Shown: positions 8,184 through 63,066, counted from the first letter of the stretch. The stretch is 64,000 nt of DNA from Vicinamibacterales bacterium (GCA_038320555.1 JBBQEJ010000002.1:22618-86617), one strand, 5' to 3'. Numbers and translations: made by a program. Notes: generated from the letters alone by a model not told the origin.

Positions 8184-8194
8184 CGTAACGAATT

Positions 8195-8307
8195 CACCAC
8201 AGGGGCAGCAGAGTTAACGGAGATCATGAATGTTTTGTTCTCTGCTGGCTCCGCTTGCTCCGTGGTGAAACTCTCTCCGCTCTCTCCGTCCACTCCGCTC
8301 TCTCAGG
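8195..8307. repeat. imperfect hairpin (8195-8213 / 8240-8267) plus tandem TCTCTCCG-type units (8271-8307)
   Basis: caccacaggggcagcagag pairs imperfectly with ctctgctggctccgcttgctccgtggtg. This is followed by ctctctccgc tctctccgtc cactccgctc tctcagg. It lies in the only large (129 nt) gap inside the glycan operon, directly after the MBOAT stop. Confidence 0.6.
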
Positions 8308-8312
8308 CGCCA

Positions 8313-9734
8313 TCAGAACTGGAAGTAGATGAACTCGGCGCCCCCGAAGTTTCCGAACAGCATGGTCAGGTAAAACGTCGCGGCGTAAACGGAGTATCGC
8401 ACGCCGACGGGAAGGCGCGGAACGATGAGCAGGTTGTCGTACAGCGCCTCGCACACGTGTACGGCCAGCAACGGTGTCGTATACATCAGCAGCGGGACGA
8501 GCACTCCTTCGACGTTGATGGAGGAGGGAGCGAATGCCGTCAAGAGGCTGCGCGTCATTTCGGTCAGCTGCCTGGCCGATCGCGCGCGGAATATCAGCCA
8601 CCCGTAGCACGTCACATGAAACATGACCGCCCACGACACGATGCGCGCCACGGGAGCGTTGCGTGTGCCCCATGTATGAAAAGCCCGCACGCGATCGGCG
8701 GCCCTGAACGCGACGAGAAGTATGCCGTGATACAGACCCCACAGCACGAACGTCCAGGCGGCGCCGTGCCAGAGTCCGCCGAGCACCATGGTAATGAGGA
8801 GGTTGCGGTTGGTCCGGGCGGCCGAGCCGCGGTTGCCGCCGAGCGGAATATAGAGGTAGTCGCGCAGCCAGGTTGAAAGGCTGATGTGCCAATGGCGCCA
8901 GAACTCTTGCGGCGTCCGGACGAAATACGGGAATCGGAAATTTTCGATGAGCTCGATCCCCATCAACTTCGACGTTCCCCGCGCGATGTTCGAGTAGCCC
9001 GCAAAGTCACCGTAAATCTGGAACGCGAAGGCATACGCTCCGAGGAGCACGTTCACTCCGGTCGGCCTGGCCGCCGGGTCGAACACCATGTTGACAAGGC
9101 CGGCGAGATTGTCGGCGACGAAGACTTTTTGAAAGAACCCCCAGACAATCAACCAGAGCCCGTCGCGGATCTGCTCGCGAGACACCGTGCGCCGTGTGGC
9201 GATCTGAGGAAGCAGCCGGGACGCCCTGAGGATCGGGCCGGCGACGAGATGCGGGAAGTACGCCACGAAGACCGCGAAGTCGAGCAGATGGCGCGTGGGC
9301 GTGATCTCGCGGCGGTACACGTCGATCACGTAACTCATGGTCACGAATGTATAAAACGAGATGCCCACCGGCAGCAGCACACGGACCGTCACGAAGTCGA
9401 GTTGCCAGCCGAGCGCGCCAAAGACCGCGTGCAGGTTGTCTTCGAAGAAGTTGAAATACTTGAAGAATCCGAGGAGCGTGAGATTGAACCCGAGGCTCAG
9501 ACAGAGCAGCGCGCGACGCGACGCCGGGGCGCGCGAGGCGGCCAGCGCGAGCCCGCACGTGTAATCCACGAGCGTGGAGGCCACCAGCAGTCCGAGAAAA
9601 CGCCAGTCCCACGCTGCATAGAAGTAATAGCTCGCGACGAGCAGCAGCCAGTTCTGCCCCCGGTGCGGCAGCACGCGGTACAGCGAGTAGACGACGACGA
9701 AGAACCAGACGAAGTGCAGCGAGTTGAAGACCAT
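8313..9734 (-). CDS. MBOAT family O-acyltransferase (AlgI/DltB/PatA-like)
   Basis: 473 aa multi-pass membrane protein. MBOAT signature FWRHWHISLSTWLRDYLYIPLGGNRGS with the conserved His. Confidence 0.9.
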   Translation of the reverse strand: MVFNSLHFVWFFVVVYSLYRVLPHRGQNWLLLVASYYFYAAWDWRFLGLLVASTLVDYTCGLALAASRAPASRRALLCLSLGFNLTLLGFFKYFNFFEDNLHAVFGALGWQLDFVTVRVLLPVGISFYTFVTMSYVIDVYRREITPTRHLLDFAVFVAYFPHLVAGPILRASRLLPQIATRRTVSREQIRDGLWLIVWGFFQKVFVADNLAGLVNMVFDPAARPTGVNVLLGAYAFAFQIYGDFAGYSNIARGTSKLMGIELIENFRFPYFVRTPQEFWRHWHISLSTWLRDYLYIPLGGNRGSAARTNRNLLITMVLGGLWHGAAWTFVLWGLYHGILLVAFRAADRVRAFHTWGTRNAPVARIVSWAVMFHVTCYGWLIFRARSARQLTEMTRSLLTAFAPSSINVEGVLVPLLMYTTPLLAVHVCEALYDNLLIVPRLPVGVRYSVYAATFYLTMLFGNFGGAEFIYFQF

Positions 9735-9742
9735 CGTCGCGA

Positions 9743-10882
9743 TCAGCGCCCGACGGGCTGCATGGGCCGCTCGTCGAGGAGTCCGGAATCGCGGAGGAAC
9801 CGCTCGAGGGCGCCGGCGACGATCTCGTGACCGCGTGGTGTCAGATGAACCGTCTGCTGGAAGAACACGTCCGGGCCCGGCAGCGCGCTCCGGAGCGCGG
9901 GCAGCGCGTCGAAGCGCGGAACAGGAAGGGCGTCCAGTGCGGTGGCGAAACGTTCCGTGGCGCCGTCACGCACCAACTCCCCTCCTGATTGCGCCACCGC
10001 CTCCCGCAGCCTCCCGTAGTCCGCGTCGTCCACCTGGAACCGCGCCGGCATCAACATGACCGCCGTGCGCGCCCCTGCAGCCGCCGCATCAGCCGCCATT
10101 GCCTCGACGACGCGACGGACAACCGAGAGTCCGCGCCCGATCCGTGGGGCGGGATGTACGGCGTAGCTCTGAAGGGGGGGCTCGGGAGGTCCTGCGGTCC
10201 GTGTGAATCGATCGGTCGCCGCTACTACGCGCAGGCGAAGGACCTGCAGAACCATACTGCGCCGCACGAGACGCCTCAGACGCGTGCTGGCCGCCTCGTG
10301 GACGGTCGCGAATGCAGGGGGGGCCCGCCCGTCGAACAGAGCTTCAGAGCCCGCCGCGTCCTCGGCGTCATTCCCGACAAAGAGCGTCTCGACGACGATG
10401 TCGGGTTGGACGGCGGGAAGGATGGAGCGAAAGAAGAGCAGTTCCTGCACGGGGCCGTAGCCCTGGACTCCACCGTTGATCACGCGATATCGGATTCCGT
10501 GCGACGAGGCATTGAGCCGCTGCTCGAGCAATTCACCGAACGTCTGTGCGAACGGCACCTGCACGGAGAGCACGAGCGAATCGCCCAGGAGAAGGATTCG
10601 CCGTTCGTTTTCCGCTTTCGGCCCGATCTCTTCGTCGTCGCGGACTCCGGCCGCGTTGATCGCGATCTCGGTGTCGAACTCCACCGTCGCGAAGCGCACG
10701 TGCGCGCGGGGTTTGAGGCGGTAGCCGATGACAGGATCATTGGCAAAAAGGCCCTGAAACGCGGGCGCCGCCTCCGAGCTGCCCCAGGTGCGGAGCGCGG
10801 CCTCGAATACGCCGAACTGGACGGCCATGATCAGGGCGAACACGGCCACACGGCGCGCGAGGCGTCGAGGTTGACCTGCCAC
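9743..10882 (-). CDS. membrane-anchored SGNH/GDSL-fold protein (AlgJ/AlgX/PatB-like partner of the MBOAT)
   Basis: Track ORF trimmed to GTG 10882, 2 nt after the upstream TAA (10885-10887). N-terminal TM helix VAVFALIMAVQFGVFEAAL. Blocks ILLLGDSLVL (GDS), LFVGNDAED (GxND) and TVHLTPRGHEIVA (His). Confidence 0.7.
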   Translation of the reverse strand: MAGQPRRLARRVAVFALIMAVQFGVFEAALRTWGSSEAAPAFQGLFANDPVIGYRLKPRAHVRFATVEFDTEIAINAAGVRDDEEIGPKAENERRILLLGDSLVLSVQVPFAQTFGELLEQRLNASSHGIRYRVINGGVQGYGPVQELLFFRSILPAVQPDIVVETLFVGNDAEDAAGSEALFDGRAPPAFATVHEAASTRLRRLVRRSMVLQVLRLRVVAATDRFTRTAGPPEPPLQSYAVHPAPRIGRGLSVVRRVVEAMAADAAAAGARTAVMLMPARFQVDDADYGRLREAVAQSGGELVRDGATERFATALDALPVPRFDALPALRSALPGPDVFFQQTVHLTPRGHEIVAGALERFLRDSGLLDERPMQPVGR

Positions 10883-10884
10883 GG

Positions 10885-12992: not shown

Positions 12993-13777
12993 GCCCGATC
13001 CCTCGGCTCCGGTGGCACCGGTTCCGCAGACAGGCCGCGCAGCTCGGGCCGGAGGTGGTCCCGGCGGACGACGAGCGCGGCCCACAGCTTCGCCACGTCG
13101 ATTGCCGTCTTGAAGAGCCGGCGGAAATTGAAGAATTGCGATTTCCCGTGCGCGCGGTGATAGTGGTGGATCGGTACTTCGGCAATGCGGAATCCCGCGT
13201 CCTGGATCTTCTTCATCATCTCGAGACAGATCACGCCGCTGGTCTTTTCCAGCGAGACCTGCTCGAAGATGGATCGGCGCAGCAGACGGAAGTCGCAATC
13301 GACATCGCGCACGTTCAAGCCGAAGAGCCGCTTCACCGTGTGGTGATAGACGCGCCCGATCACGATTCGGTGCAAGGGATCCGAACGGCTGATTTTGTAT
13401 CCGTTGACGAGATCGACATTGTCATCAAGTGCGTCCCAGAGCCTCGTCATCTCCGACGGATCGTACTGGGCGTCGCCGTCGGTGTAGAACACCAACTCGC
13501 GAGTGGCCGCCTTGAAGCCGCTCTGCAGCGCGCCGCCGTAGCCGCGGTTACGTCCGTGGCGCACGACCCTGACTTCGGGATACGTGCGTGCGAGCTCATC
13601 GGCGATCTGCGCCGTCGCGTCCGCGCTTCCGTCATCGACGATGATCACCTCGAAGTCCGGCGTAAGGGCCCTCGCAGTCTGCAGCGCGGTGATCACGAGG
13701 CTCGCGATTGTCCCGCTGTCGTTGTAGGCGGGAAAAAAGACAGTGAGTCCTGGCTTCCTGATGGCAGGCTGAGGCAT
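12989..13777 (-). CDS. glycosyltransferase family 2 (Dpm1/ArnC/GtrB type)
   Basis: 262 aa. LTVFFPAYNDSGTI, VIIVDDGSADAT, RNRGYGGALQSG. Confidence 0.9.
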   Translation of the reverse strand: MPQPAIRKPGLTVFFPAYNDSGTIASLVITALQTARALTPDFEVIIVDDGSADATAQIADELARTYPEVRVVRHGRNRGYGGALQSGFKAATRELVFYTDGDAQYDPSEMTRLWDALDDNVDLVNGYKISRSDPLHRIVIGRVYHHTVKRLFGLNVRDVDCDFRLLRRSIFEQVSLEKTSGVICLEMMKKIQDAGFRIAEVPIHHYHRAHGKSQFFNFRRLFKTAIDVAKLWAALVVRRDHLRPELRGLSAEPVPPEPRDRA

Positions 13778-17016: not shown

Positions 17017-17877
17017 TTATCGACGGCCTTCGAACCGCAGCGCCGAGATCTGTTCGGAGACGAGCCCGACGAGGAACACCATGACTCCGAAGAGGATCAG
17101 CAGCACGGCGCCGTTGGGAATACGCGAGTGCGCCACGACGTTCCACAAGCCATACGTCAGTCCTGTCACGATCGTGATGCCGGCGAGCGGTACGAACACG
17201 CGCAGTGGACTGAAGATGGTCACGATCTTCAGAATGATCATGAAGAACTTCGCGCCGTCGCGGGCGAGCCGGATCTTCGACTGGCCGATGCGGGTGCGGG
17301 CTTCTACCGGCTCGAACGTCACGTTGTAGCCGGCTTTGATGAACGCCAGGGTGGTCGTGGTTGGCGTCGAGAAGCCGTTTGGCAGGAGGTGAATGAACTC
17401 GCGCAGATACTCGCGCCGCGCGCCGCGGAACCCCGACGTCAGGTCGGGGATTTCGCGGCCCGTCAGGTAACCCGCAAGCCAGTTGAGGGCGCCGTTTCCG
17501 ACGCGACGCGCGCGGGTCGCTTGCGTCGAGGTCGAGCGGGCGCCGACGACCAGGTCGTACTCGCCCAGGCGCGACGCGATGCGCCGGGCATCTTCCGGCC
17601 GGTGCTGTCCGTCGCCGTCGATGATGAGGACGAACTCGCCGCCGGCCCTGCGGATCCCGCTCTTGACCGCAGCCCCGTTGCCCTTGTTGTAGGGATGCCT
17701 CACCACGACGGCGCCGGTCGACGCCGCCAGCGTGGCCGTCGCGTCGTCCGACCCGTCGTCCACGACGATGATCTCGTGCCACGTCGCGGCGGCCGCCAGG
17801 GCGGCCACGACCTGGCCGATGACATCCGCTTCGTTGTAGGCAGGAATGACGACGGATACCGCTGAAGGCTCGGCCAC
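17017..17877 (-). CDS. GT2 with C-terminal TM helices (GtrB/ArnC-type polyprenyl-phosphate glycosyltransferase)
   Basis: VSVVIPAYNEADVIGQVV, IIVVDDGSDDAT, NKGNGAAVKSG, then two hydrophobic helices. GTG 17877 is preferred. ATG 17928 would overlap the upstream gene by 47 nt. Confidence 0.85.
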   Translation of the reverse strand: MAEPSAVSVVIPAYNEADVIGQVVAALAAAATWHEIIVVDDGSDDATATLAASTGAVVVRHPYNKGNGAAVKSGIRRAGGEFVLIIDGDGQHRPEDARRIASRLGEYDLVVGARSTSTQATRARRVGNGALNWLAGYLTGREIPDLTSGFRGARREYLREFIHLLPNGFSTPTTTTLAFIKAGYNVTFEPVEARTRIGQSKIRLARDGAKFFMIILKIVTIFSPLRVFVPLAGITIVTGLTYGLWNVVAHSRIPNGAVLLILFGVMVFLVGLVSEQISALRFEGRR

Positions 17878-18921: not shown

Positions 18922-18957
18922 CATGGCAATTATGGCGATTCTGGCAATTCTGGCAAC
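18922..18957. repeat. four tandem 9-mers (catggcaat tatggcgat tctggcaat tctggcaac) straddling the stop codon of the GT4 gene
   Basis: Read directly from the sequence. On the coding strand the units spell ...LPELPESP-stop and continue into the 22-nt spacer. Confidence 0.7.
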
Positions 18958-19994
18958 GTCGTCAGCTTTTCGATCACGCCGTCCCACGTGATGCCGGTCG
19001 CCACCGCGTACCCCGCGTCGCCCATGGCCGCCGCTCGTGCGCGATCGGCGGCGAGCCGGTTGATCGCATCCGCCAGCTCGCCGGGGTTTGGCGCGCACAC
19101 GAACCCGTTCACGCCGTCCACGACGAACTCGGTCGGGCCACCCGAGTCGCGGCAGGTCACGACGGGCTTCCGCGCGAGGAATCCCTCGAGCGTGACGTAC
19201 CCGAAGTCTTCGTCGAAGGGCGGATAGATCACCGCCAGCGCGTGAGCATAGAGTCCGATCAAATCGTCGTCACCGACGGTTCCGAGAAAGGTGACGCGGT
19301 CGACGACGCCCGCTTCTTCCGCCGTTCGCTCGGCATTCTGCCGATGCGTCCCGTCGCCGGCAATGAGGAGGCGAGCCGGGCGATCGACGCTCGCCATTGC
19401 CTTGATGATCAAATCGACGCGCTTGACCGATTCGATTCGGCCGACCGACAGAACATAATCGCCAGACGGCCCGGGGACGAGTCGCGGCGCCAGGTTCGGC
19501 GGGTGATACAGCGCCTCGGCCCGGAGCCCGTTGAACTTCGCCAGCCGCGATGCTGTGTTGCGCGCGTTCGTGAAGAGGGCACGGCACTCGCCGAGCATTT
19601 CCGTGTCGAGCCGCATCAGCGTGTCGCGCAGACCCACGTCCAGCTCCGTGTGCGAGAAATCGCTGTACTCGGTGCCGCACAGCTCGTAAGCAGCACGGTA
19701 TTGGTGAATGAGCCACGCGACCTTGTTCGGGTGCCGCGCGAAGTAGGAAGGAAACTTGGTGCCGATCACGAGATCCACCGGCCGACCGTTGCTCTCGCTC
19801 AAATCCAGGAGCCGCCACGCCGCCGCATGGGGCAGGATTTCTTCCTTGGGATACCACTTGAACGGCACGCTGACGAGTTCCGCCGAGTAGCCCCGCTGCC
19901 GCAGCTCCCGTACCAGTTGCCGCACGTGAACTTCAGCGCCGCCGTGCACGAACGGCACTTGGGCCTCGCAGACGAGCACGGTCTGCACTGTCAT
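18930..19994 (-). CDS. glycosyltransferase family 4 (GT-B), first gene of the glycan operon
   Basis: 354 aa. FDEDFGYVTLEGFLARKPVV (EX7E-like) and overall GT-B layout. Confidence 0.85.
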   Translation of the reverse strand: MTVQTVLVCEAQVPFVHGGAEVHVRQLVRELRQRGYSAELVSVPFKWYPKEEILPHAAAWRLLDLSESNGRPVDLVIGTKFPSYFARHPNKVAWLIHQYRAAYELCGTEYSDFSHTELDVGLRDTLMRLDTEMLGECRALFTNARNTASRLAKFNGLRAEALYHPPNLAPRLVPGPSGDYVLSVGRIESVKRVDLIIKAMASVDRPARLLIAGDGTHRQNAERTAEEAGVVDRVTFLGTVGDDDLIGLYAHALAVIYPPFDEDFGYVTLEGFLARKPVVTCRDSGGPTEFVVDGVNGFVCAPNPGELADAINRLAADRARAAAMGDAGYAVATGITWDGVIEKLTTLPELPESP

Positions 19995-20004
19995 CGAATG
20001 GGTG

Positions 20005-20013
20005 AATCTACCA
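20005..20013 (-). promoter_or_regulatory. candidate extended -10 element TGgTAGATT, 10 nt upstream of the GT4 ATG
   Basis: Minus strand reads cgTGgTAGATTcacccattcgATG. It shares the core GTGGTAGA with sites at 38408 (+) and 62935 (-). Confidence 0.3.
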
Positions 20014-20023
20014 CGATGTAAAG

Positions 20024-20063
20024 TTGGTGAATTGGTGAATTGGTGAATTCACGAATTCACCAA
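20024..20063. repeat. three tandem octamers TTGGTGAA followed directly by their complement (32-nt near-perfect palindrome containing GTGAATTCAC)
   Basis: ttggtgaa ttggtgaa ttggtgaa ttcacgaa ttcaccaa. A further ggtgaatc copy lies at 20001. The element sits between the ychF stop and the glycan operon start. Confidence 0.75.
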
Positions 20064-26817: not shown

Positions 26818-28236
26818 GTGGATCGTGTGCCGTTGACCGCGGGACACATCGTGGCCGCCACCGGCGGGCGGCTCGTACATGGACGCGCGGATCAGGCGAT
26901 CGACACAATCTCGATCGACTCCCGCAGAGTGGGGGCTGGTGATTTCTTCGTGGCCATCCGCGGCGAGCGCTTCGACGGACATCGCTTCGTTGCCGACTCA
27001 CTGGCGCGCGGAGCGCGTGGCGCGCTGGTCGAGGAGACGGCAGCAGGCACGGCGCAGGCCGCGGCAGGAGGTCATCGAGACGCGGTGCTGATTGCCGTCG
27101 AGGACACGACGCGCGGCCTCCAGGACATCGCGCGCGACGTGCGGCAGCGCTCCGGAACGAAGATCGTCGCGATCACAGGCAGCGCAGGGAAGACGACGAC
27201 AAAGGAAGTCGCGGCGGAATTTCTTTCGACGCGATATCGAGTATTTCGCAACACAGGGAACTTCAACAACCACATCGGCCTGCCGCTCTCGCTCCTCGAG
27301 CTGCGGTCGCGACCTGAGGTGGCGGTGGTCGAGCTCGGCATGAATCACCCCGGAGAAATCCGAACGCTCGTCGGCATCGCGCAGCCGGAGGTCCGGGTGT
27401 GGACCAACGTCGGCGACGCGCACGCCGGATTCTTCGCCTCCACGGACGCGATTGCCGATGCCAAGGGTGAAATCCTGGAGGGTGCACGCACCGGCGACGT
27501 GCTGGTGGCCAACGCCGACGACAGCCGCATCGCCGCGCGGGCCGGTGCCTTTGCCGGACGTGTGATGACGTTCGGGCTCGAGCACTCCGCCGACGTACGC
27601 GCGACCGACATCGAGGAGCGGGGCCTCGACGGCATCGCGGCGCGGGTCCGTACTCCTGTCGGCGATATGGACCTCGAGACGCCGCTCCTCGGCCTGGGCA
27701 ATCTCGCCAACGTGCTCGCGGCGGTTGCCGTCGCCCTGCAATTCGACGTTCCGCTCGACGATGTCGCCGCGGCGGCTGCCGGGCTGCGAGCAGCGCATCG
27801 CCGCGGCGAGTTATTGCGTCTTCCCGGAGGACTCACGCTCATTGACGACTCGTACAACTCCAGTCCGGCGGCGCTCAAGCGTGCCCTGCAGACGATGAAG
27901 ACGGCGAGTGGCAGCGCGCGCAAAATCGCGGTCCTCGGCGAAATGCTCGAGCTCGGCGCCCACGCTACTCGGTTGCACGAAGAGTGCGGCGCCCTGGCGG
28001 CCGCCGTCGGACTCGACCTGCTCATCGCCGTCGGCGGCCCGCCCGCGCGCGCGCTCGCGGATGCGGCGATACGGAGCGGGATGGCGGAATCCTCTGTCGC
28101 CTGGGTCGCGACCAGCGCCGAGGCCGCGGAGTTTGCCGCCGGACGGACACGGCCGGGCGACCTCGTGCTGGTCAAAGGTTCACGCGGCATCGGCACCGAC
28201 GCTGTCGTCGATCGCCTGACGGCGGAGTTCGCCTGA
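26818..28236 (+). CDS. murF: UDP-MurNAc-tripeptide:D-Ala-D-Ala ligase MurF
   Basis: ITGSAGKTTTKE and the Mur ligase layout. Track ORF trimmed to GTG 26818, 5 nt after the murE TAG (GTG 26827 is an alternative). Confidence 0.9.
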   Translation: MDRVPLTAGHIVAATGGRLVHGRADQAIDTISIDSRRVGAGDFFVAIRGERFDGHRFVADSLARGARGALVEETAAGTAQAAAGGHRDAVLIAVEDTTRGLQDIARDVRQRSGTKIVAITGSAGKTTTKEVAAEFLSTRYRVFRNTGNFNNHIGLPLSLLELRSRPEVAVVELGMNHPGEIRTLVGIAQPEVRVWTNVGDAHAGFFASTDAIADAKGEILEGARTGDVLVANADDSRIAARAGAFAGRVMTFGLEHSADVRATDIEERGLDGIAARVRTPVGDMDLETPLLGLGNLANVLAAVAVALQFDVPLDDVAAAAAGLRAAHRRGELLRLPGGLTLIDDSYNSSPAALKRALQTMKTASGSARKIAVLGEMLELGAHATRLHEECGALAAAVGLDLLIAVGGPPARALADAAIRSGMAESSVAWVATSAEAAEFAAGRTRPGDLVLVKGSRGIGTDAVVDRLTAEFA

Positions 28237-43302: not shown

Positions 43303-43306
43303 TAAA

Positions 43307-43462: not shown

Positions 43463-43472
43463 GGGTAGCGGA

Positions 43473-45182
43473 TTATGTCCGTCCTTCCAGGAAGGCGCGG
43501 AGCTTCCGGGAGCGCGACGGATGGCGCAGCTTGCGGAGCGCCTTCGCCTCGATCTGCCGGATGCGCTCGCGGGTGACCGCGAAACTCTGGCCGACCTCTT
43601 CCAGCGTGTGCTCGCTGCCGTCGCCGACGCCAAACCGCATCTTGATCACCTTCTCTTCACGCGGCGTGAGCGTCTTCAACACCGAGTCGGTCTGTTCCTT
43701 CAGGTTCAGATTGATGACCGCGTCCGAGGGGGACACGACCTGCCGATCCTCGATGAAATCGCCAAGATGCGAGTCTTCCTCTTCGCCGATCGGTGTTTCC
43801 AGCGAGATCGGCTCCTGCGCGATCTTGAGGACCTTCCGGACCTTCGAAACCGGGATGTCCATCCGTTTCGCGATCTCCTCGGAGGTTGGCTCGCGACCGA
43901 GCTCCTGCACCAACGCGCGCGAGGTGCGAATCAGCTTGTTGATCGTCTCGATCATGTGAACCGGGATCCGGATGGTTCGGGCCTGGTCCGCAATCGCACG
44001 CGTGATCGCCTGGCGAATCCACCACGTCGCATACGTCGAGAACTTGTACCCGCGGCGGTATTCGAACTTGTCCACCGCCTTCATCAGCCCGATATTGCCT
44101 TCCTGAATCAGGTCGAGGAACTGCAACCCGCGGTTGGTGTACTTCTTCGCGATCGAGACCACGAGCCGGAGGTTGGCTTCGACGAGCTCCTTCTTGGCCT
44201 GTTCCGCCTGGACCTCGCCCCGGGCGATGGTCTCGAGCGTGCGCATCAGCTGGTCCGGCGTCTCTTCGAGCTCGTCGGCCATCGCCTTGACCTGGACCTT
44301 GAGCTCCTTCTGCTGCCTGAGGAGATTCTTCTTGTCGTCCTCCTTCAGGCGGCTCTTCTTGTTCTTCGGGTTGACCTGCCGCTCGATGTGATCGATTTGC
44401 CGCTTGACGCGCATGACCGCTTCGACCGACTCCTTGATCTGGTCGATCATGCGGCGCTTGATGTTCTCGGTGAACTCGATCTTGCGGATCAACTTCGAGA
44501 GCTCGACGCGCGCCCGCAGCGACTCGCCCCGCACCCGGCGGTACTTGCGCTTGTCGCGGGTCGTCGCCCCTTTCAGCGTCCTGTCCAGCTTTTCCTTGCA
44601 CTTCTCGACCGCCTGCCACGCTTTGCGCACGGCCTCGATCTGCCGGACCACCTGCCTCTTGCGGTCGTCGATTTTTTCGTCGGTGAGCTCTTCGTCCACG
44701 AACGTAACGAGTTCGCGGATGCTGCGCTCGTCCGCCTTCAGCGCGTCCCCCATCTGCATGATGGCGCGCGCAATGGTCGGCGTGCGCGAGATCGACTTGA
44801 TCACTGCGAGCTTGCCGCGCTCGATCCGCTTGGCGATCTCGACTTCTCCTTCACGCGTGAGGAGAGGGACCGTGCCCATTTCCCGGAGATACATCCGGAC
44901 GGGATCGTTCGTCTTGTCGAGCGCCCCAGGCGTGAGATCGAGCTCGAGCTCCTCGGCTCCTTCGCCGGTTCGATCGAGCAGCTTGTCTTCCCGATATTTC
45001 TGCTCCGAATCGACGACTTCAATCCCCGCGCTGCCGAACGTGCTGAAGAGGTCATCGAGCTCATCAGACGACGTGATGTCGGCCGGGAGCAGTTCGTTGA
45101 CCTCGTCGTACAGCAGATAGCCTTTTTCCTTGCCGATAGAGATGAGCTGCCTCACCTCATCATATTTTTCTTCGATCGACAA
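43473..45182 (-). CDS. rpoD: RNA polymerase primary sigma factor RpoD
   Basis: 569 aa. [28 protein letters not shown]..., region 2 [27 protein letters not shown], region 4 [11 protein letters not shown]...[30 protein letters not shown]. Confidence 0.97.
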
Positions 45183-47010: not shown

Positions 47011-49500
47011 TTACTCCTTCAGTTCAACCACCGTCACTCCGCCCCCACCCTGGTTATCGGGCGCGGGGGCAGCGTTTGACACGAACGGATGCGTGCGGAG
47101 GAACTCGGCAATCGCGCGGCGCAGCTGGCCGGTGCCGTATCCGTGGATGATGCGCACGGACTTGACCTCGCTCAGCAGCGCGTCGTCGAGGAATTTCTCC
47201 GTGCGAGCCAACGCCTCCTCGACGTGGGCGCCGATGACGTTCAACTCGGTCGACGATCCCTCGCGCGGCTGCCACTCGACATTGACCCGCACGCGGGCCG
47301 GCTGCGCATTCACCGTCGCGGCGGGGGTGACGACACGGAGCTCGTCCACTCGCGCGCGCAGCCGTTTGCCGCGCACGTCCACTTCTGCTTCGCGATCGTG
47401 CAGCGCCTGCACGACCCCCTCGAGGCCGAAGGCGCCGACGAGCACGCGATCGCCGATTGCCGGCGCGCGGGCCGGCTCCATCCGCGCCACCGGTGTGGCC
47501 TCCGCCGCGTCGGGATGCGCGCGCAGCCGTTCGCCAATAGCCTCGACGGCGGCCCGGGCTTCGGCCCGAGCCGCGCCCGTTTCGCCGGTGGGGATGAGGC
47601 GGGGCGCCATCCTCCGCTCCGCATCCGCCGCCAGCGCCTCGGTCCGTGCTTTGAGCGCGTCTACGACGGTATCGATCTCGCGGCGGGCATCCCGCAGGCG
47701 CTCCTCGATCCGTTCGTCGAGGCGGCGCTTGAACGTGTCCTCGCGGTTGCGCAGCTCCTGATCGCGTACCTGCAGCCTGGTCCCCGCCTCGGCGAGCGTC
47801 TCCCGCTCGCGCACAGCGAGTCGCCGTTCGTGATCGAGCGACTGCAGGTCGCGCTCGATCTTGGCGAGGTGCTCGGCGAGCTGGGATTCCCGGGCGCTCC
47901 GATGTGCGCGCGCCTGTTCGATGACGTCGGCGGGCATCCCGAGGCGGTTGGCGATCTCGAGCGCAAGGCTGCTGCCGGGGGACCCATAGTTGAGCCGATA
48001 GGTCGGGGCGAACGTCTCTGGATCGAAACCAAACCCCGCCGCCATAACACCTTCGGTCGTCGACGCGTACGACTTCAGCGCATCGTAGTGCGTCGTCGCG
48101 ATCACCATCGCGCCGCGGCGTCGGAAGTGGTCGATGATCGCCATCGCGAGCGCGCCACCTTCGAGCGGGTCGGTCCCGGCGCCCGCCTCGTCGAGGAGCA
48201 CGAGCGAGGGCAGGATCAACGCTTTCTCCATCGAGACGATACTCGCGATGTGGGCGGAAAACGTGCTCAGGTTTGCCGAGATCGACTGCTCGTCGCCGAT
48301 GTCGGCAAACACCGTGCGGAAGACGGGTATCTGTGAGCCGCCCGCGGCCGGGATCAGGATGCCTGCCTGCGCCATCACGGACAAGAGACCGGCGGTCTTG
48401 AGCGCAACCGTCTTGCCACCTGTGTTAGGTCCGGTGACGACAAGTACATTCGTCGGTGGGATTAGGACGACGTCAACGGGGACTGGGCCCTCGAATCGCG
48501 AATCGCGAGTCGCGATTCGCGGTTCGCTCTCTTCAGCGGATTCATCGCTGAGTCGCCGCCGCACGGCGGGGATGAGCAGCGGATGCCTACCGGCGCGGAT
48601 CTCGAGTCGGCCATCCGTCGCGATTGCCGGCTCGGTCCCATCGATGAGCAGCGAAAACTGCGCGCGGGCCTGGAGCACGTCGAGCTCGGTTGCCGCCTGC
48701 ACGGTGCGCTCGAGATCGCCTCCGCGGCGGCGGAACGCATCGGTCAGCTCCAGCAGAATACGACGGACTTCCTCTGCCTCCTGCTGCTCGAGCGCGACGA
48801 TGTCGTTGTTGATTTCAACCGTGCTGAGCGGCTCGAGAAAGAGACTGGCGCCGCTGCCCGAGCTGCCGTGCACGATTCCGGGAATCGCGGAGCGATGTTC
48901 AGATCGAACGACGAGCACGTAGCGTCCATTGCGATCCGTGACGATCTGCTGCTGCAAGTATTTGGAGGTGTCCTTGCCGCGCAGATACGATTCCAGCGTG
49001 CCGCGCAGACGCGTACGCTGTTTCCGCAATCGATCCCGCACGCTTCGGAGCTCAGGACTTGCGTCGTCCATCACCTCGCCGGCCGGATCGATCTTGCGGC
49101 GGATGTCGGATATCTCGGCGTCGAACGTGGCAGACCCGTCTGCGATCGCGCGAAGAATCGGGCAGGCACCGCGGGCGCGCCGGACCGACGCGCAGGTCAC
49201 GTCGACCGACGCGAGAAACGAGCCGAGTGCGAGGAGGTGTCCGGCGTCGAGCGCTCGTCCGTCGACCCCAAGCGAGCTCAGTATAGCGTCGAGGTCCGCG
49301 GGGGCGTGAAGGCCGATCTGATTGTCCGCCAGGAACCGTACGGTTTCCGAAGTCGCGGCAAGCGCGGTCGCAACCGCGCGCGGCTCCGTCTGAGGCTCGA
49401 GTAACGCCAGGCGCGCGGCTCCGGGCGGGGTCTGCGCAAAGCGGCAAACCGCCTCGACAATCCGATCGAACTCAAGGGCCCTCAGGGCGCCTGCATGCAT
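47011..49500 (-). CDS. mutS2: endonuclease MutS2 (MutS domain + C-terminal Smr)
   Basis: 829 aa. VVTGPNTGGKTVALKTAGL, LVLLDEAGAGTDP and C-terminal Smr (VRIIHGYGTGQLRRAI). Contains an in-frame palindromic insertion (see repeat 48492-48526). Confidence 0.95.
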   Translation of the reverse strand: MHAGALRALEFDRIVEAVCRFAQTPPGAARLALLEPQTEPRAVATALAATSETVRFLADNQIGLHAPADLDAILSSLGVDGRALDAGHLLALGSFLASVDVTCASVRRARGACPILRAIADGSATFDAEISDIRRKIDPAGEVMDDASPELRSVRDRLRKQRTRLRGTLESYLRGKDTSKYLQQQIVTDRNGRYVLVVRSEHRSAIPGIVHGSSGSGASLFLEPLSTVEINNDIVALEQQEAEEVRRILLELTDAFRRRGGDLERTVQAATELDVLQARAQFSLLIDGTEPAIATDGRLEIRAGRHPLLIPAVRRRLSDESAEESEPRIATRDSRFEGPVPVDVVLIPPTNVLVVTGPNTGGKTVALKTAGLLSVMAQAGILIPAAGGSQIPVFRTVFADIGDEQSISANLSTFSAHIASIVSMEKALILPSLVLLDEAGAGTDPLEGGALAMAIIDHFRRRGAMVIATTHYDALKSYASTTEGVMAAGFGFDPETFAPTYRLNYGSPGSSLALEIANRLGMPADVIEQARAHRSARESQLAEHLAKIERDLQSLDHERRLAVRERETLAEAGTRLQVRDQELRNREDTFKRRLDERIEERLRDARREIDTVVDALKARTEALAADAERRMAPRLIPTGETGAARAEARAAVEAIGERLRAHPDAAEATPVARMEPARAPAIGDRVLVGAFGLEGVVQALHDREAEVDVRGKRLRARVDELRVVTPAATVNAQPARVRVNVEWQPREGSSTELNVIGAHVEEALARTEKFLDDALLSEVKSVRIIHGYGTGQLRRAIAEFLRTHPFVSNAAPAPDNQGGGGVTVVELKE
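48492..48526. repeat. 35-bp near-perfect palindrome of the CGCGAAT/GAACCGC family inside the mutS2 coding sequence
   Basis: cgaatcgcgaatcgcga g tcgcgattcgcggttcg, one mismatch between arms. The 19-mer gtcgcgattcgcggttcgc (48509-48527) is identical to intergenic 53846-53864. It encodes EPRIATRDSRFE. Confidence 0.85.
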
Positions 49501-49601: not shown

Positions 49602-49724
49602 CAGGTTCTTCAGGGTTCTACTTCGTTCTGCAGGGTTCTACTGGGTTCGCCGCGACTAAGGTGGGCCGACGAACCAAGAGAACCTTGAAGAACCTGGTAG
49701 AACCCGGTAGAACCTCGTAGAACC
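49602..49724. repeat. long imperfect hairpin of GGTTCT units (49602-49649) and AGAACC units (49670-49724), including three tandem decamers NGGTAGAACC
   Basis: caggttcttcagggttctacttcgttctgcagggttctactgggttcg ... cgaaccaagagaaccttgaagaacc tggtagaacc cggtagaacc tcgtagaacc. It ends 6 nt before the larB stop codon. Confidence 0.75.
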
Positions 49725-49730
49725 TTGGGA

Positions 49731-53845: not shown

Positions 53846-53980
53846 GTCGCGATTCGCGGTTCGCGGGTTTGGCTCCTTCTTTGTGGCGTCCGCCTTCCGC
53901 CTTCGCGCGAAGCGCTACGGCGAGACCTCGACGAAGCTCGAAGAGCGAAGTCGGGGCGGAGGCTGGTTGGGCGGAAGGAC
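53846..53980. repeat. composite repeat region: GAACCGC-family 19-mer, CGAAG-rich stretch with palindrome cttcgcgcgaag, bulged hairpin gtccgccttccgcc / ggcggaaggac
   Basis: Read directly from the sequence. 53846-53864 is identical to 48509-48527 inside mutS2. A tagcggc unit follows at 53981-53987. Confidence 0.65.
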
Positions 53981-55127: not shown

Positions 55128-55252
55128 ACAGGAGGTCAGAAGAAATCTTCAAAAAGAGTCGTCTGATCTCCTTGCCTCCTGTAAGAACACGCCAACCGCC
55201 AACCGCGAACCGCGCGCCGCGAACCGCGAGTCCGCGAGTCGCGATCTGCGAG
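55128..55252. repeat. hairpin acaggagg...cctcctgt (55128-55182) followed by nine CGCNAAC/CGCGAGT heptamers (55190-55252)
   Basis: cgccaac cgccaac cgcgaac cgcgcgc cgcgaac cgcgagt ccgcgag tcgcgat ctgcgag. It shares the 13-mer cgcgagtcgcgat with 48504-48516. Confidence 0.7.
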
Positions 55253-55263
55253 CCATCCCTGAA

Positions 55264-55272
55264 TGCTATAAT
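55264..55272 (+). promoter_or_regulatory. candidate extended -10 promoter TGcTATAAT for lepA
   Basis: aaTGcTATAATttgc, with a perfect TATAAT at 55267-55272, 29 nt upstream of the lepA ATG. Confidence 0.45.
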
Positions 55273-55300
55273 TTGCTGTTCCTGGCCCGCTAAGTCATTC

Positions 55301-57817: not shown

Positions 57818-58156
57818 ATGATCCGAAGGGCGCTGCAGATCGCGGTCTTTCTGCTCCTCGCGAACGCGGTCTACCAGGCAGTGCCGGTCAGCTGGCATTA
57901 CTACCAGTTCAAAGACGCACTCCAGGAGCTCGCGCTTTTTTCACAGAAGTCCACCGACGCCCAGCTCGTCGATCGCGTGATGGTCCTCGCAGACGAGCAC
58001 AACATTCCGCTCGACCGTGATTACGTGCAGGTACAGCGCGGCCGCGGCGAGCTCGTCATCACGGTCTCGTACATCGACACGATGAAGTTCGTGCCGGGAT
58101 ACGATTACAACCGTCAGTTCGACATCGTGGCCAGGGCCTTCGACCCGAACCGCTAG
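57818..58156 (+). CDS. hypothetical membrane-anchored protein
   Basis: 112 aa. N-terminal TM helix ALQIAVFLLLANAVYQAV. 16 nt after lepB. No family recognised. Confidence 0.55.
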   Translation: MIRRALQIAVFLLLANAVYQAVPVSWHYYQFKDALQELALFSQKSTDAQLVDRVMVLADEHNIPLDRDYVQVQRGRGELVITVSYIDTMKFVPGYDYNRQFDIVARAFDPNR

Positions 58157-58157
58157 C

Positions 58158-58458
58158 CGCTAGCGCTACTTTGTCAGATCAGCCAATTCGCTCGGGCGAC
58201 GGTCCGGTGACTTGTCACGGCGGGTTCACGCAGAGAGCGCCAAGCGCGCGGAGAAGACCAGTAAGGAAGCGCTGCGCCGTTAGGCAGCCTTTCTCGGCGA
58301 TCTGTGTGTCTCGGCTTGCTCCGCGTGAGATCGTCTTCTCCGCGCACGGTGAAGCTGCGGCAATGTCGAGCGAAACCACGCAGGGAGTACGACGAGCTAG
58401 AAAGCAGCACCCGCGACTTCCCACGGGAAGTCGTCAATCTGACAAAGTCGCACTAGCG
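58158..58458. repeat. about 300-nt structured intergenic element bounded by 22-nt imperfect inverted repeats (perfect 12-bp core actttgtcagat / atctgacaaagt), with nested perfect stems
   Basis: Outer arms 58158-58179 / 58437-58458. 13-bp perfect stem gcgcggagaagac 58246-58258 / gtcttctccgcgc 58333-58345. Palindrome gtgacttgtcac 58207-58218. Hairpin cgacttccc..gggaagtcg 58414-58433. Confidence 0.7.
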
Positions 58459-58474
58459 ACGCGTCAGCAGGCCA

Positions 58475-59101
58475 CTAACCTTCCGATTTTAGCTGGGTCA
58501 CTGCGGTCAGGACTTCGCGCTCTCCTTCGACCACAAGCTGCTCGGCTTCGCGCCGAACGGCGGCGGCAAATGTCTCGTCCTTGATGCCCGGAAGGTTGAC
58601 GTCTACGTTCAGCTTCGCGCCCCGAAGTCCGGCTCGGAGCAACTCCAGGCCCACCTGCACATCGCTCGCGGCGTTGCGGTTGCCGAACGCGGCGATGACG
58701 GCTGCAAGCCCAATCGCGTCGGCGCAGGTGCGCATGGTGTCGAGCGGCGCCTCAGTGGCCGAGCGTAGCGCTTCCTGGATCCGAATACCGCGCGCCGTTT
58801 TCTCTTCGTCGGTATTCTTCGGTAACCGGAACGCGGCGACCACGAGATCGTACGCGCTGCTGTCTCGATCCATCAATGCGGCGAGACGGTCGCCAATCGC
58901 CGCACAGCGGGCGCCGGCGACGGCCAGGCGCTCGATGTCCTCTGTCCTGTGCGCCCGCGGCTTCGGCAGTCGTGCGACCATGGCGAGGAGCGAGGCGCCC
59001 ACCGCGCCCCCCAACGCCGATGCCGATCCCCCGCCAGGCGTGGGTTCCCGTGATCGGAAGGCGTCGAGCAGCTCAGTGAACGGAAGCTGTGCGAGACTCA
59101 T
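58475..59101 (-). CDS. cyclodeaminase/cyclohydrolase family protein (FTCD C-terminal-like, formimidoyl-THF cyclodeaminase)
   Basis: 208 aa. LPFTELLDAFRSREPTPGGGSASALGGAVGASLLAMVARL is the family N-terminal signature. The ATG overlaps the end of hutI by 29 nt. Confidence 0.8.
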   Translation of the reverse strand: MSLAQLPFTELLDAFRSREPTPGGGSASALGGAVGASLLAMVARLPKPRAHRTEDIERLAVAGARCAAIGDRLAALMDRDSSAYDLVVAAFRLPKNTDEEKTARGIRIQEALRSATEAPLDTMRTCADAIGLAAVIAAFGNRNAASDVQVGLELLRAGLRGAKLNVDVNLPGIKDETFAAAVRREAEQLVVEGEREVLTAVTQLKSEG

Positions 59102-60389: not shown

Positions 60390-60455
60390 AATCCCTGATT
60401 CACGAACCGCGAACCGCGAACCGCAACCGCGAACCGCAACCGCGAATCAGGGATT
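60390..60455. repeat. GAACCGC heptamer array (60404-60444) enclosed by a perfect 11-bp inverted repeat aatccctgatt / aatcagggatt
   Basis: aatccctgatt cac gaaccgc gaaccgc gaaccgc aaccgc gaaccgc aaccgc g aatcagggatt. The right arm contains the divIVA stop codon. Confidence 0.85.
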
Positions 60456-61859: not shown

Positions 61860-61873
61860 GTTGGGCGCCGGTG

Positions 61874-62860
61874 TTACTTGATGTACGTCTTCAGCATCTC
61901 GAGGTTGCTCGCCGCTTCCTTGGCGTTGGGCCCGTTCGGCGCGATCTTCGTGTAAGCCTCGAACTCTTTCGCGGCGTCCGGGAGCTTGCCGAGATTCAGG
62001 TAGACCCGTCCGAGCATGAAGTGTGATTCCGCATGCTGCGGATTTGCCTTGACCGCCGCCGCGAACTGTTCCTGTGCCTTCGCGAAGTCGTTCGCGTTCC
62101 AGGAAATCACCCCCGAGTTGTACAGCGAATCGGCGCCGCCACCGGCGGCACCGCCCGCCGTCGCGCGTTTCATCACCTCGGCGCTCATCGCCTGCGCCTC
62201 AGTGAATTTCTTCTGGTCGTTGTAGATCGTCGCGAGGCCGCTGTACGCCTCGACCAGATTCGGATCGAGCTCCAGCGCCTTTTTATAGGCCGCCTCAGCC
62301 CCGGCATAATCCTTCTTCGCGGCGCTCGACGCGCCAATCCCGATGTAGCACTCCGGGCACTTTGGGACATCCTTCAGCACTTCGTTGAACTTCGCGATCG
62401 CCTCATCGAACTTGCCGGCGTTGGCTAACGTCGCGCCTTCGCTGAACGCCGCCTTGATGCCGGCGACGCGCGCCTCTGCCTTGGCCCTGTCTTCCTTCGA
62501 CATGTCTCCGGGCGCGACTCCGCCCTTTGCGAGCGTCAAATTCACCTCGGCCATATCCAGGCTGATGTGACTGTTCTTGGTCGCAGAGAGACCGTCCTTC
62601 TCGGCGGTGATCTTGTAGTTGCCAGGCGGAATCCCGATTTGCATGTACTCGCCGTTTTTCTTCGTCTTCAACTCGAACTTCGAGTTCGTGTCGACGGCCT
62701 GCAGCGTGACCTTCGCGCCCTCGACGGGCTTGTTGTCGGCGTCGACGACCTTTCCCCTGATCTGCCCGGTCTGGGCCAGCGCCGGCGAGGCGACAGCCGC
62801 CACTCCGAGCACCAAGGCGCAGATGGCAAGCGTCCGGCTGACGATATGTGTGCCCACCAT
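61874..62860 (-). CDS. secreted protein: signal peptide + carboxypeptidase-regulatory-like beta-sandwich + TPR repeats
   Basis: LAICALVLGVAAVASPALAQ; IRGKVVDADNKPVEGAKVTL...GNYKITAEKDG; then several A/Y/G-patterned TPR units. GGAGGA RBS. Confidence 0.8.
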   Translation of the reverse strand: MVGTHIVSRTLAICALVLGVAAVASPALAQTGQIRGKVVDADNKPVEGAKVTLQAVDTNSKFELKTKKNGEYMQIGIPPGNYKITAEKDGLSATKNSHISLDMAEVNLTLAKGGVAPGDMSKEDRAKAEARVAGIKAAFSEGATLANAGKFDEAIAKFNEVLKDVPKCPECYIGIGASSAAKKDYAGAEAAYKKALELDPNLVEAYSGLATIYNDQKKFTEAQAMSAEVMKRATAGGAAGGGADSLYNSGVISWNANDFAKAQEQFAAAVKANPQHAESHFMLGRVYLNLGKLPDAAKEFEAYTKIAPNGPNAKEAASNLEMLKTYIK

Positions 62861-62925
62861 GTCCAGAATCCTCCGTCAGTGCTGAGAAGAAAAACGGCGT
62901 AAACCGCTGTGAAGTCTGACCCTGT

Positions 62926-62934
62926 AGTCTACCA
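62926..62934 (-). promoter_or_regulatory. candidate extended -10 element TGgTAGACT upstream of the TPR gene
   Basis: Minus strand reads cggTGgTAGACTacagg, 66 nt upstream of ATG 62860. Same 11-mer as 38408-38418. Confidence 0.3.
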
Positions 62935-62946
62935 CCGAGTGGTCGG

Positions 62947-63044
62947 TTGCCAGTTCCCGGTTCCCAGTTCCCAGAAAACATCGCAAGCCCAGTGGTGCGA
63001 AACCGGAAGCGACAACTGGCAACTGGCAACTGGAAACTGGCACC
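62947..63044. repeat. inverted arrays of CCAGTTC heptamers (62947-62974) and AACTGGC heptamers (63013-63044), 38-nt spacer
   Basis: ttg ccagttc ccggttc ccagttc ccag ... caactgg caactgg caactgg aaactgg cacc. It starts 22 nt downstream of the dinG stop on the minus strand. Confidence 0.8.
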
Positions 63045-63066
63045 AGGAACGAAGCTCATAAGTGTC

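Follow-up and report, generated by a model that had tools for sequence, protein, structure and literature searches.

Inverted arrays of heptamer-class tandem repeats at gene 3' ends in a genome segment of a Vicinamibacterales bacterium

Hairpins built from short tandem repeats lie at about half of the gene-end gaps in the 64,000-nt stretch of DNA analysed here (GCA_038320555.1 JBBQEJ010000002.1:22618-86617; hereafter the window), which has a GC content of 65%. The best matches of its LepA in a species-level genome collection are metagenome-assembled genomes of the Vicinamibacterales and Vicinamibacteraceae (Acidobacteriota; 85 and 78% identity). The nearest LepA in a large protein collection has 98% identity, and a 93% match bears the name Vicinamibacterales. 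Judged by these matches, the host is a Vicinamibacterales acidobacterium. Genes were called with a codon-usage model trained on the window itself; some start codons in these home-made calls are imprecise and a gene in 28237-29242 was missed. The 1 kb left without a call ahead of murD, after the gene at 26818-28236, therefore reflects a limitation of the caller and is no true gap; from its place ahead of murD, the missed gene is most likely mraY (open reading frame (ORF) 27984-29330, with a later start). Pfam annotation covered 20 window proteins, ~34 further gene calls being outside that scan. The genes annotated in this way include an MBOAT-family gene, glycosyltransferases, ychF, murD, ftsW, a Cu-oxidase_4 gene, rnhA, a CT398-like gene, rpoD, mutS2, a GT2 gene, citrate synthase, ada, lepA and the genes of an amidohydrolase, a TPR protein and a helicase. 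The name dnaG was given via homolog search, and lepB, ftsA, ftsZ, purE and divIVA were named via synteny with annotated relatives. A tRNA-Met gene (CAT; 43307-43379, - strand; Rfam/ARAGORN) has repeat hairpins on both sides, and Rfam at the gathering threshold returned nothing else over the whole window.

Tandem arrays were detected with Tandem Repeats Finder (TRF). The window contains 16 arrays of at least 2.8 copies whose period is not divisible by three (5, 7, 8, 10 or 11), and period 7 accounts for 12 of these. Intergenic DNA, 8.0% of the window by the gene calls, holds 13 of the 16 (binomial p=2.5e-12), and the missed gene at 28237-29242 makes this test conservative. For periods of 6, 9 or 12 the bias is absent (1/5 arrays intergenic). 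Doublets of the family units described below occur 2-5 times per unit, where 100 dinucleotide shuffles predict no more than 0.11. The density of arrays is 2.5 per 10 kb in the window and has a median of 0 in 80 lepA neighbourhoods across bacteria. Period 7 is the commonest when the window and its relatives are pooled (35/61 arrays). An earlier note, made by reading the sequence, had described tandem units of 7-10 nt and had named their enrichment in intergenic 3' DNA in advance as a check; TRF and our own reading of the sequence bear out the units, and the enrichment was found. With at least ~3 head-to-tail copies above chance, a non-coding bias, the dominance of period 7 and copy-number polymorphism, the arrays have the properties of heptamer-class long simple sequence repeats (SSRs).

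Folding was assessed on the transcribed strand of the 14 loci listed in that note, at its coordinates, with 100-200 dinucleotide shuffles per locus, a check that the note had itself proposed. Most loci fold better than their shuffles (11/14, z-scores from -3.45 to -7.43, with 0-2 shuffles reaching the observed energy), and element-free gaps have z near 0. The three loci that failed were 18922-57 (E=0, z=+2.0), 53846-53980 (z -0.13) and 8195-8307 (z -0.7). These results support the view that the elements are discrete, structured and recurrent in sequence families. The single architecture claimed for at least 14 loci, in which an array is followed by a spacer and a complementary array, is present at eight (20001, 30704, 41966, 43190, 43392, 48492, 49602 and 62947); the list had lumped together at least four distinct kinds. 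The statement that almost every inter-operon gap carries a hairpin was likewise too strong, as ~12-13 of ~23 gene-end gaps of at least 45 nt do, and neither of the two divergent gaps in the window has an element.

The eight loci with the full layout differ widely in unit and setting. The hairpin at 20001-20063 (- strand; z -5.3) has arms of GGTGAATT x3.2 and GAATTCAC x2.5, 12 nt after the stop of the ychF-like gene (20076) and 13 nt ahead of the next start. Within the cell-division (dcw) cluster, a ~130-nt hairpin at 30700-30835 (+ strand; z -6.2) with arms GTGAGCA x2.3 and CTGCTGA x4.1 overlaps the stop of murD (30712) and lies between murD and ftsW. It is followed at 30840-30887 (+ strand) by a (TAGCGGC) x4.7 array with partial self-complementarity via GCTAGC. 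The folding energy is -86.6 kcal/mol for the hairpin alone and -107.6 kcal/mol for 30700-30890, and the murD-ftsW gap (30700-30998 region) measures 286 nt inside a normally compact cluster. The convergent gap at 41966-42026 is filled by a CTGATTG/CAATCAG hairpin (z -3.45) that overlaps both stops (41986 on the + strand, 42020 on the - strand) and is followed on the + strand by TTTTTT. A hairpin of the same unit family at 43190-43302 (- strand; z -6.3) begins 4 nt past the 3' end of tRNA-Met; the T-run TTCTTTTT comes next and the CT398-like gene starts ~8 nt further on. On the other side of the tRNA gene, 12 nt ahead of it and 10 nt past the rpoD stop codon, the hairpin at 43392-43462 (- strand; z -4.0) has one arm of AAGGGA-type heptamers (x4.7) and a second arm complementary to these. 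The perfect hairpin of CGAATCG and CGATTCG units at 48492-48526 (- strand; z -4.9) is no gap element: by Pfam and translation it lies within the MutS2 coding sequence, where it encodes residues ~325-336 (EPRIATRDSRFE) of a loop that is hypervariable between relatives. The element at 49602-49724 (- strand; z -7.4) has period 10 and begins 6 nt after the purE-like stop; its arms, GGTTCTnnnn x4.5 and nnnnAGAACC x4.7, form 6-bp helices with unpaired 4-nt spacers between them. The arms at 62947-63044 (- strand; z -5.6), CCAGTTN x4 and CAACTGG x4.3, likewise form 6-bp helices, with a mismatch at each seventh position, 22 nt after the helicase stop.

The remaining loci are not paired-array hairpins. 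At 8195-8307 (- strand), 5 nt past the stop of the MBOAT-family gene (8313-9734), a hairpin (~8195-8265) adjoins arrays of CTCCGCTGG x2.6 and CTCTCTCCG x3.8 that are mostly outside it; the whole gap has a z of -4.4 to -4.9. The repeat at 18924-18956 (- strand) is a 9-nt unit, TGGCAATTC x3.7, without a hairpin; it is in frame and codes for LPELPESP at the C-terminus of a GT1 glycosyltransferase (gene at 18930-19988). The 135-nt segment at 53846-53980 (+ strand) contains small repeats (TCGCGRT x2.9; TCCGCCT x2.3 opposite GGCGGA-type units) and interrupts a CTRGCGG heptamer array, with CTAGCGG on each side. In contig L081 of a close relative (1016-1065) this array is continuous, with 8 units, and the segment may be an insertion into the repeat array. 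GCGAAG-rich, GC-rich segments akin to it were observed at non-orthologous sites of relatives (L081 ~2430-2515, L209 ~13660-13760, L082 ~17545-17640). Between ada and lepA, an ordinary non-repeat hairpin (ACAGGAGG...CCTCCTGT; 55128-55182, + strand), 8 nt after the ada stop and kept in L081 (65 nt, 91% identity), is followed by an array of CGAACCG and related units (~9 units; 55185-55252, + strand) with no complementary arm. This array adjoins the conserved lepA promoter TGCTATAAT. An extended -10 promoter-like motif upstream of lepA, TGAATGCTATAATTTGCTG (window 55253-55300; L081 2386-2420; L082 9925-9945), is kept in all relatives amid variable surroundings. At 60390-60455 (- strand; z -6.8), a (CGAACCG) x6.6 array forms the loop region of a plain and perfect 12-bp stem (AATCCCTGATTC/GAATCAGGGATT) that contains the DivIVA stop codon.

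The locus at 58158-58458 (z -4.95) belongs to a class apart. An insertion of ~300 nt, bounded by terminal inverted repeats of 22 nt (GCTAGCGCTACTTTGTCAGAT and ATCTGACAAAGTCGCACTAGCG), lies there beside CCGCTAG x2.9; it is missing from L082, L084 and L086, whose convergent genes overlap at this place. The flanking CGCTAGC repeat could be a target-site duplication or simply part of a heptamer array. No convincing ORF was seen in it, no Rfam match was obtained for 58100-58500 at E up to 1, and no second copy was found in the window or in the relatives' sequences compared. Terminal inverted repeats, a non-coding sequence and presence or absence at orthologous sites are traits of a MITE (miniature inverted-repeat transposable element), and this locus may be a MITE of unknown family.

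Three unit families recur at separate loci of the window, namely A (CGAAYCG), B (CTGATTG) and C (TAGCGGC). The recurrence over kilobases claimed by the earlier note holds for these three, except that the 54.0 kb copy of family B is a single unit beside those at 42.0 and 43.2 kb; the link drawn between AACTGGC-type units at 18.9 and 63.0 kb is weak, and the GGTGAATT unit was scored within the 20.0 kb locus only. At least seven unrelated unit families are present in the 64 kb. Longer strings are also common to non-orthologous sites: 23/23 nt between the family B copy at ~43.3 kb and the GT2-citrate synthase gap of relatives L082-L086, and 19/19 nt between the copy inside mutS2 (48492-48526) and the intergenic sequence at 53846-53864, after citrate synthase.

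All 13 intergenic elements begin no more than 22 nt from the end of the upstream gene or tRNA, five overlap the stop codon, and in all 11 co-directional gaps the element is closer to the upstream stop than to the downstream start, which agrees with the proximity to stop codons noted earlier. In several genes the stop codon itself is part of the element, belonging either to its first repeat unit or to its stem (41984-41986, 30710-30712, 60447-60449 and 18930-18932), the TGA being contained in CTGATTG, GTGAGCA and CCCTGATTC. A period-7 array whose unit contains TGA or TAG closes all three reading frames within 21 nt.

The same bias is seen far beyond the window. An exact-pattern scan found at least 120 metagenome contigs with two CTGATTG-type units in the arrangement of the window, at 42-69% GC among the matches listed. 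With a strict unit definition, the contigs listed contain 52 hairpins of paired family B arrays, ~40% of their family B arrays; 41 read 5'-(CTGATTG)n...(CAATCAG)n-3' and 11 the reverse. Both flanking genes were called for 36 of these hairpins, of which 25 are in co-directional, 10 in convergent and 1 in divergent gaps. The hairpins lie a median of 10 nt past the upstream stop and 30 nt ahead of the next start, and 21/25 are nearer the stop. The layout of array, loop and complementary array also occurs in several unrelated genomes, in contigs of Candidatus Sulfotelmatobacter (L011), Terracidiphilus (L015), an unclassified bacterium (L022), Nitrospira (L033) and a gammaproteobacterium (L077), in the last of which a hairpin stands 4 nt after the lepA stop.

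Syntenic relatives were obtained via LepA and DnaG homologs. The LepA of L081 is 98% identical to that of the window; L082-L085, four samples of one population, have one identical LepA (93% to the window), and the LepA of L086 is also 93% identical. The DnaG proteins of L207, L208 and L209 are 95, 91 and 87% identical to that of the window. The closest entries of the species-level genome collection (L001-L003) were short or distant and unfit for gap comparison. Orthologous gaps of these relatives differ by discrete presence or absence of elements and by unit number, and not by unstructured drift, a possibility the earlier note had raised. Within one population (identical LepA) the gap upstream of ada is 228, 291, 312 or 326 nt long and the rpiB-methyltransferase gap 69, 89, 90 or 234 nt, while short hairpins in the same contigs are identical or one base apart. 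A divergent promoter gap that varies from 69 to 234 nt among near-identical strains (L082 21412-21480; L083 21412-21500; L084 21416-21505; L086 21412-21645) contains a self-complementary array of GGTGCCTTG alternating with GGTGCCAAG.

Downstream of purE, the window and L208 share a period-10 hairpin with two arms, L082-L086 have only GTAGAACC-type units, and L209 has only remnants; the GTAGAACC units stay upstream of the mutS2 promoter in all relatives, even without the second arm. The hairpin in the rnhA gap (41966-42026) differs in unit numbers between the window and L208. The hairpin 3' of rpoD (43392-43462) is also found in L208, with fewer units, and at its site L209 has a canonical 11-bp terminator (AAGGCCGAAGG, loop, CCTTCGGCCTT, then T8) only ~20 nt ahead of tRNA-Met (counterparts of the rpoD-tRNA-Met-CT398 region are L208 8337-8609 and L209 13528-13885). 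The family B hairpin downstream of tRNA-Met is kept in L208 and L209, whose DnaG is 91 and 87% identical to that of the window. The mutS2-dnaG gap contains a ~85-nt family B hairpin in L207, L208 and L209 and is 16 nt long in the window (junction GAATTG|CACTGA), so that parsimony places a loss in the lineage of the window. Between ada and lepA, the window and L081 have the first hairpin and the lepA promoter in common, and the arrays between them are entirely different. The elements at 58158, 60390 and 62947 are missing from the relatives with 93% LepA identity, and unrelated sequence occupies the site of the last. Turnover also extends into coding DNA. Alignments of protein and DNA show that each lineage has its own in-frame short-repeat array in the MutS2 surface loop between RHPLL and the ATPase domain: the window and L207 have CGAATCG units, L208 (3172-3223) has CCCGGAAC x7 and is 12 residues longer, and L209 (8380-8410) has CCGGATC units. 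The length of the loop varies by up to 12 residues.

On balance, the elements are probably hairpin-forming inverted arrays of heptamer-class SSRs that were made by slippage and template switching and persist as RNA stem-loops at cistron ends. Replication slippage would make and resize the arrays. Template switching within or between the arms might add, copy or correct the opposite arm, and deletion across the base of the hairpin would remove whole elements. The quasi-palindrome idea behind template switching is that of Ripley's model. The observed modes of turnover (unit-number change, gain or loss of an arm, deletion of the whole hairpin) are consistent with these events, which would take place wherever the DNA tolerates change, one protein loop included. 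Copies just past a stop codon or a tRNA would be transcribed into long imperfect stem-loops; those predicted here have stems of 20-45 bp with internal loops. Such stem-loops might act as barriers to 3'-5' exonucleases, as RNase III-type processing sites or as partial terminators, bidirectional ones in convergent gaps, and would thereby fill the niche held elsewhere by repetitive extragenic palindromic (REP) elements and canonical terminators. Of the roles the earlier note had offered, the terminator without a U-tract, the stabiliser of the 3' untranslated region (UTR) and the slippage-prone module are still the right candidates.

A function at cistron ends is hinted at by the proximity to stops, the depletion in divergent gaps, the canonical terminator that L209 has at the rpoD site and the number of canonical sites in the window. 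A consensus scan of 41-61 kb found 13 hairpins with a U-tract, against 12.2 expected, and thus no enrichment, so that other structures or Rho are likely to end transcripts there. The compensatory changes seen between relatives are only a hint of function. There are 2 compensatory pairs in the hairpin downstream of tRNA-Met, and in the purE hairpin of the window and L208 there are 3 compensatory and 9 wobble changes with 0 broken pairs, all counted from 2-3 sequences with RNAalifold, which favours kept pairs.

Several other observations weigh against this reading. Any function of the hairpins at the RNA level is putative, and they may act in RNA or in DNA: a strand-neutral register test gave 5 G.U and 4 A.C mismatches, and so no evidence of selection on the transcribed strand. 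The sense strand is the more stable in only 9/14 elements (G.U pairs 48 vs 32), and because of the register test we rejected the difference between sense and antisense energies as evidence for the strand of action. The arm lengths of family B hairpins are uncorrelated (r=-0.09, with crude unit detection). A T-run follows only two to three of the hairpins, for example those at 41966-42026 and 43190-43302, and several stand 8-50 nt ahead of the next start or tRNA, or within the dcw cluster (30700-30887), and so cannot be efficient terminators unless read-through is common. The string of mutS2, dnaG, rpoD, tRNA, CT398 and rnhA has hairpins at most junctions and scant promoter room, which argues against strong termination. 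Most elements are unconserved at ~93% LepA identity, and neutral turnover therefore fits as well as function. Arrays lie in the divergent promoter gaps of relatives and in frame in MutS2, so that the process that generates them needs no function at 3' ends. Lastly, slippage alone does not account for the same heptamers at many loci, in contigs that span 42-69% GC among the matches listed.

Many of these observations are what would be expected if the elements were neutral by-products of lineage-wide slippage and inverted duplication, with a 3'-end bias that arises because selection shields promoters, ribosome binding sites and coding sequence. The fast turnover, the arrays in the MutS2 loop and in divergent gaps and the lack of asymmetry between G.U and A.C mismatches all suit this explanation, as does the loss of the whole mutS2-dnaG hairpin with no visible replacement. 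Against it stand a median distance of 10 nt from the stop even in long gaps, the single divergent case in 36 and the polarity bias of 41 to 11 among the contigs listed. The canonical terminator at the same site in L209 also weighs against it, as does the persistence, with compensatory or wobble changes, of the hairpins after tRNA-Met and purE in relatives whose DnaG is 87-91% identical. Nor would neutrality alone account for the recurrence of particular heptamers. We regard this explanation as unlikely.

It is also conceivable, although improbable in our view, that the elements represent a self-propagating and transposase-independent hairpin element, marked by preferred heptamers and common to Acidobacteriota and other soil bacteria, that replaces canonical terminators and REPs at cistron ends. 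Such an element would grow by transcription- or RNase III-linked slippage and would be copied between arms and between loci.

Dispersal of a REP/REPIN- or MITE-like kind, driven either by an enzyme acting in trans (a REP-associated tyrosine transposase (RAYT) or a different nuclease) or by ectopic conversion, would explain the strings of 23/23 and 19/19 nt common to non-orthologous sites, the spread of family B over at least 120 metagenome contigs (42-69% GC among the matches listed) and the presence or absence of whole elements. The loci at 58158-58458, with true terminal inverted repeats and missing from relatives, and at 53846-53980, which splits a heptamer array between CTAGCGG flanks, have the appearance of insertions. 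However, terminal inverted repeats were seen at 58158-58458 only, the other elements have no fixed-length consensus (unit number, spacer and arm content vary by copy), and the REP-type GTAG/CGTC head is confined to GTAGAACC units. Moreover, the shared strings comprise just 2-3 units and could be regenerated by slippage from a common unit, and there were no transposase or RAYT hits among the 20 Pfam-scanned window proteins (~34 gene calls being outside the scan, and 64 kb being part of a genome). Mobility is an improbable explanation. Arrays of binding sites for a sequence-specific DNA or single-stranded RNA protein (a nucleoid protein, a regulator or a cold-shock-type protein with one heptamer per monomer), with the hairpin as a secondary feature, would suit the constant 6-nt core and variable spacers of the period-10 element (GGTTCT/AGAACC), the GTAGAACC units kept upstream of the mutS2 promoter in all relatives even without the second arm, the recurrence of the same heptamers across taxa and the binding of CspB to heptamer direct repeats noted in MacGregor 2015 (PMC4679880), but they are very unlikely because at least seven unrelated unit families in 64 kb would need many binding proteins, no candidate protein has been put forward, and simple site arrays do not predict that ~40% of the family B arrays (contigs listed) are paired into hairpins with a polarity bias.

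Arrays of this architecture have been described before. Xanthomonas genomes have a GC content of ~65%. X. campestris and X. axonopodis each contain 183-186 GGGAATC heptamer arrays per genome, 89-93% of them intergenic (Rehm et al. 2015, PMC4692102). They have 2 to 26 units, and their mean distance is 28 nt to the ORF upstream and 160 nt to the one that follows, with some overlapping stops; 70-75 convergent array pairs per genome are able to form a stem-loop, arrays are rare between divergent genes, and the repeat lengths are not conserved between sister species (PMC4692102). The earlier note was thus wrong in stating that no equivalent with tandem heptamers and self-complementary arms was known from a GC-rich genome. 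In both systems one unit occurs in closely spaced inverted arrays that could pair into a stem-loop (8 window loci; 52 family B pairs among the contigs listed), the arrays lie nearer the upstream ORF (11/11 in the window; 21/25 in the contigs listed) and they are rare between divergent ORFs (1/36). In contrast to Xanthomonas, where one G-rich unit (GGGNATC) dominates and is read as a G-quadruplex former with a preference for four units, the window has at least seven unit families, periods of 8-10 nt as well, and a host in the Acidobacteriota. Its units are mostly incapable of quadruplex formation, AAGGGA being the only one with a G-run among CTGATTG, CGAAYCG, TAGCGGC, CCAGTTC, GGTTCT and the rest.

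The claim of novelty is also countered by Haemophilus influenzae, in which an (ATCTTTC)n array in the hmw1A 5'-UTR is one arm of a long hairpin and an RNase III substrate (Rapun-Araiz et al. 2025, PMC12721329). A change in the number of repeats there requires the hairpin, transcription and RNase III (PMC12721329). This is the only experimentally dissected heptamer-repeat hairpin that we found in the literature. It resembles the window elements in that a heptamer array is an arm of a long transcribed hairpin; unlike them, it lies in a 5'-UTR at a single locus, its other arm is a G-rich region and it serves the phase variation of one adhesin.

The resemblance to cyanobacterial heptamers and to REP elements drawn in the earlier note is supported in unit size and in position, respectively. 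Short tandemly repeated repetitive (STRR) heptamers of cyanobacteria were reportedly described by Mazel et al. in 1990. To our knowledge, the literature contains no explanation for the prevalence of heptamers among prokaryotic SSRs or for the role of inverted pairs. According to two papers that relay Mrazek 2007, heptanucleotides are the commonest long SSR in prokaryotes (PMC4679880, PMC4692102), and the former describes such repeats as non-coding and over-represented in scattered lineages, with slippage proposed as their origin. The window arrays are similar to heptamer SSRs and STRRs in their non-coding location and their dominant unit size of 7, but those are described as direct arrays, whereas here the unit sequences are different and arrays pair into hairpins. 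Direct repeats of TAACTGA occur in Beggiatoaceae, Cyanobacteria and Bacteroidetes, distant phyla with no known vehicle between them, mostly 1 to a few nt upstream of starts and in forward orientation, with one inverted pair in the genome concerned (MacGregor 2015, PMC4679880). As in the window, one heptamer is found at many intergenic sites and provides stops in all three frames, as CTGATTG and TAGCGGC do; in contrast, the window elements follow stops and are commonly inverted pairs.

In Enterobacteria and Pseudomonas, REP elements, bacterial interspersed mosaic elements (BIMEs) and REPINs are intergenic hairpins after stops, between the cistrons of operons or between convergent genes. Their proposed roles include protection of mRNA 3' ends and partial termination, and REPs are mobilised by RAYT transposases (IS200/IS605-like Y1). 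A REP is a fixed imperfect palindrome of 20-40 nt with a conserved GTAG or CGTC head (PMC3733652). The window elements share with REPs the intergenic position after stop codons and the ability to form hairpins. Unlike REPs, they are built of tandem units in variable number, without a fixed consensus; GTAG occurs only inside the GTAGAACC units at 49679-49725, and not in families A, B and C. They resemble intrinsic terminators as stable stem-loops just past a stop, and in L209 a canonical terminator stands at the same site; however, most of them have no U-tract, their 20-45 bp stems have internal loops, and they are often a few nt before the next gene.

These results indicate that the elements are real, statistically solid and widespread, and that the earlier note over-unified them. 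What is new is a multi-family acidobacterial case of inverted heptamer SSR arrays at gene 3' ends, a kind already described. The lineage offers a dense natural series, with many unit families and one long string of genes that has hairpins at nearly all its junctions, and its relatives capture the gain of an arm, the loss of a whole hairpin and the replacement of a hairpin by a canonical terminator. Two questions could thereby be tested in cultivable relatives, for instance Vicinamibacter or Luteitalea: whether the hairpins end, process or protect transcripts in GC-rich bacteria without obvious U-tract terminators, and how both arms of a repeat hairpin expand together. The TGA or TAG present in several units, often as the stop of the gene, may be part of the reason why a few heptamers (CTGATTG, CGAAYCG and TAGCGGC) recur over loci and taxa. 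The elements probably also break short-read assemblies, since most contigs of close relatives are only 2-6 kb long. They could mislead gene callers at stop codons and, as in MutS2, create in-frame length variation in proteins.

Several minor observations concern single sites. Between rpoD and the CT398-like gene the order is rpoD, hairpin, 12 nt, tRNA-Met, 4 nt, hairpin, ~8 nt and the CT398-like gene (window 43190-43473), with no room for a promoter, so that tRNA-Met and the genes after it may be made on the rpoD transcript and then processed out. An argument that the rpoD hairpin is not a terminator, for lack of promoter room before the tRNA, was dropped because a canonical terminator stands at this same tight site in L209. 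We also considered GTTC-N6-GTTC of the period-10 element as a LexA box and dropped the idea, as the GTTC-N7-GTTC spacing reportedly found in Acidobacterium and Alphaproteobacteria does not match and mutS2 is atypical for SOS. The ftsA-ftsZ gap contains purine-rich repeats absent from the earlier list (36888-36983, + strand; CACGGAAGAA x2.6 and a 16-mer x4.2) that are less structured than their shuffles (z +1.6). Its counterpart in L208 (14880-14936) is (GTCCGTGTTC) x6, and that in L082 is 8527-8688. A CCGTGTT-type unit resembling the repeats of this gap forms the copy-number-variable array upstream of ada in L082-L086. Finally, CCGCCTT and AAGGCGG units form a near-perfect hairpin 4 nt after lepA in the gammaproteobacterial contig L077 (2771-2912, 4786-4885), and the unit is also found at window 53889-53904 (16-nt identity); identical units in phyla so far apart suggest transfer or else convergence on certain heptamers.

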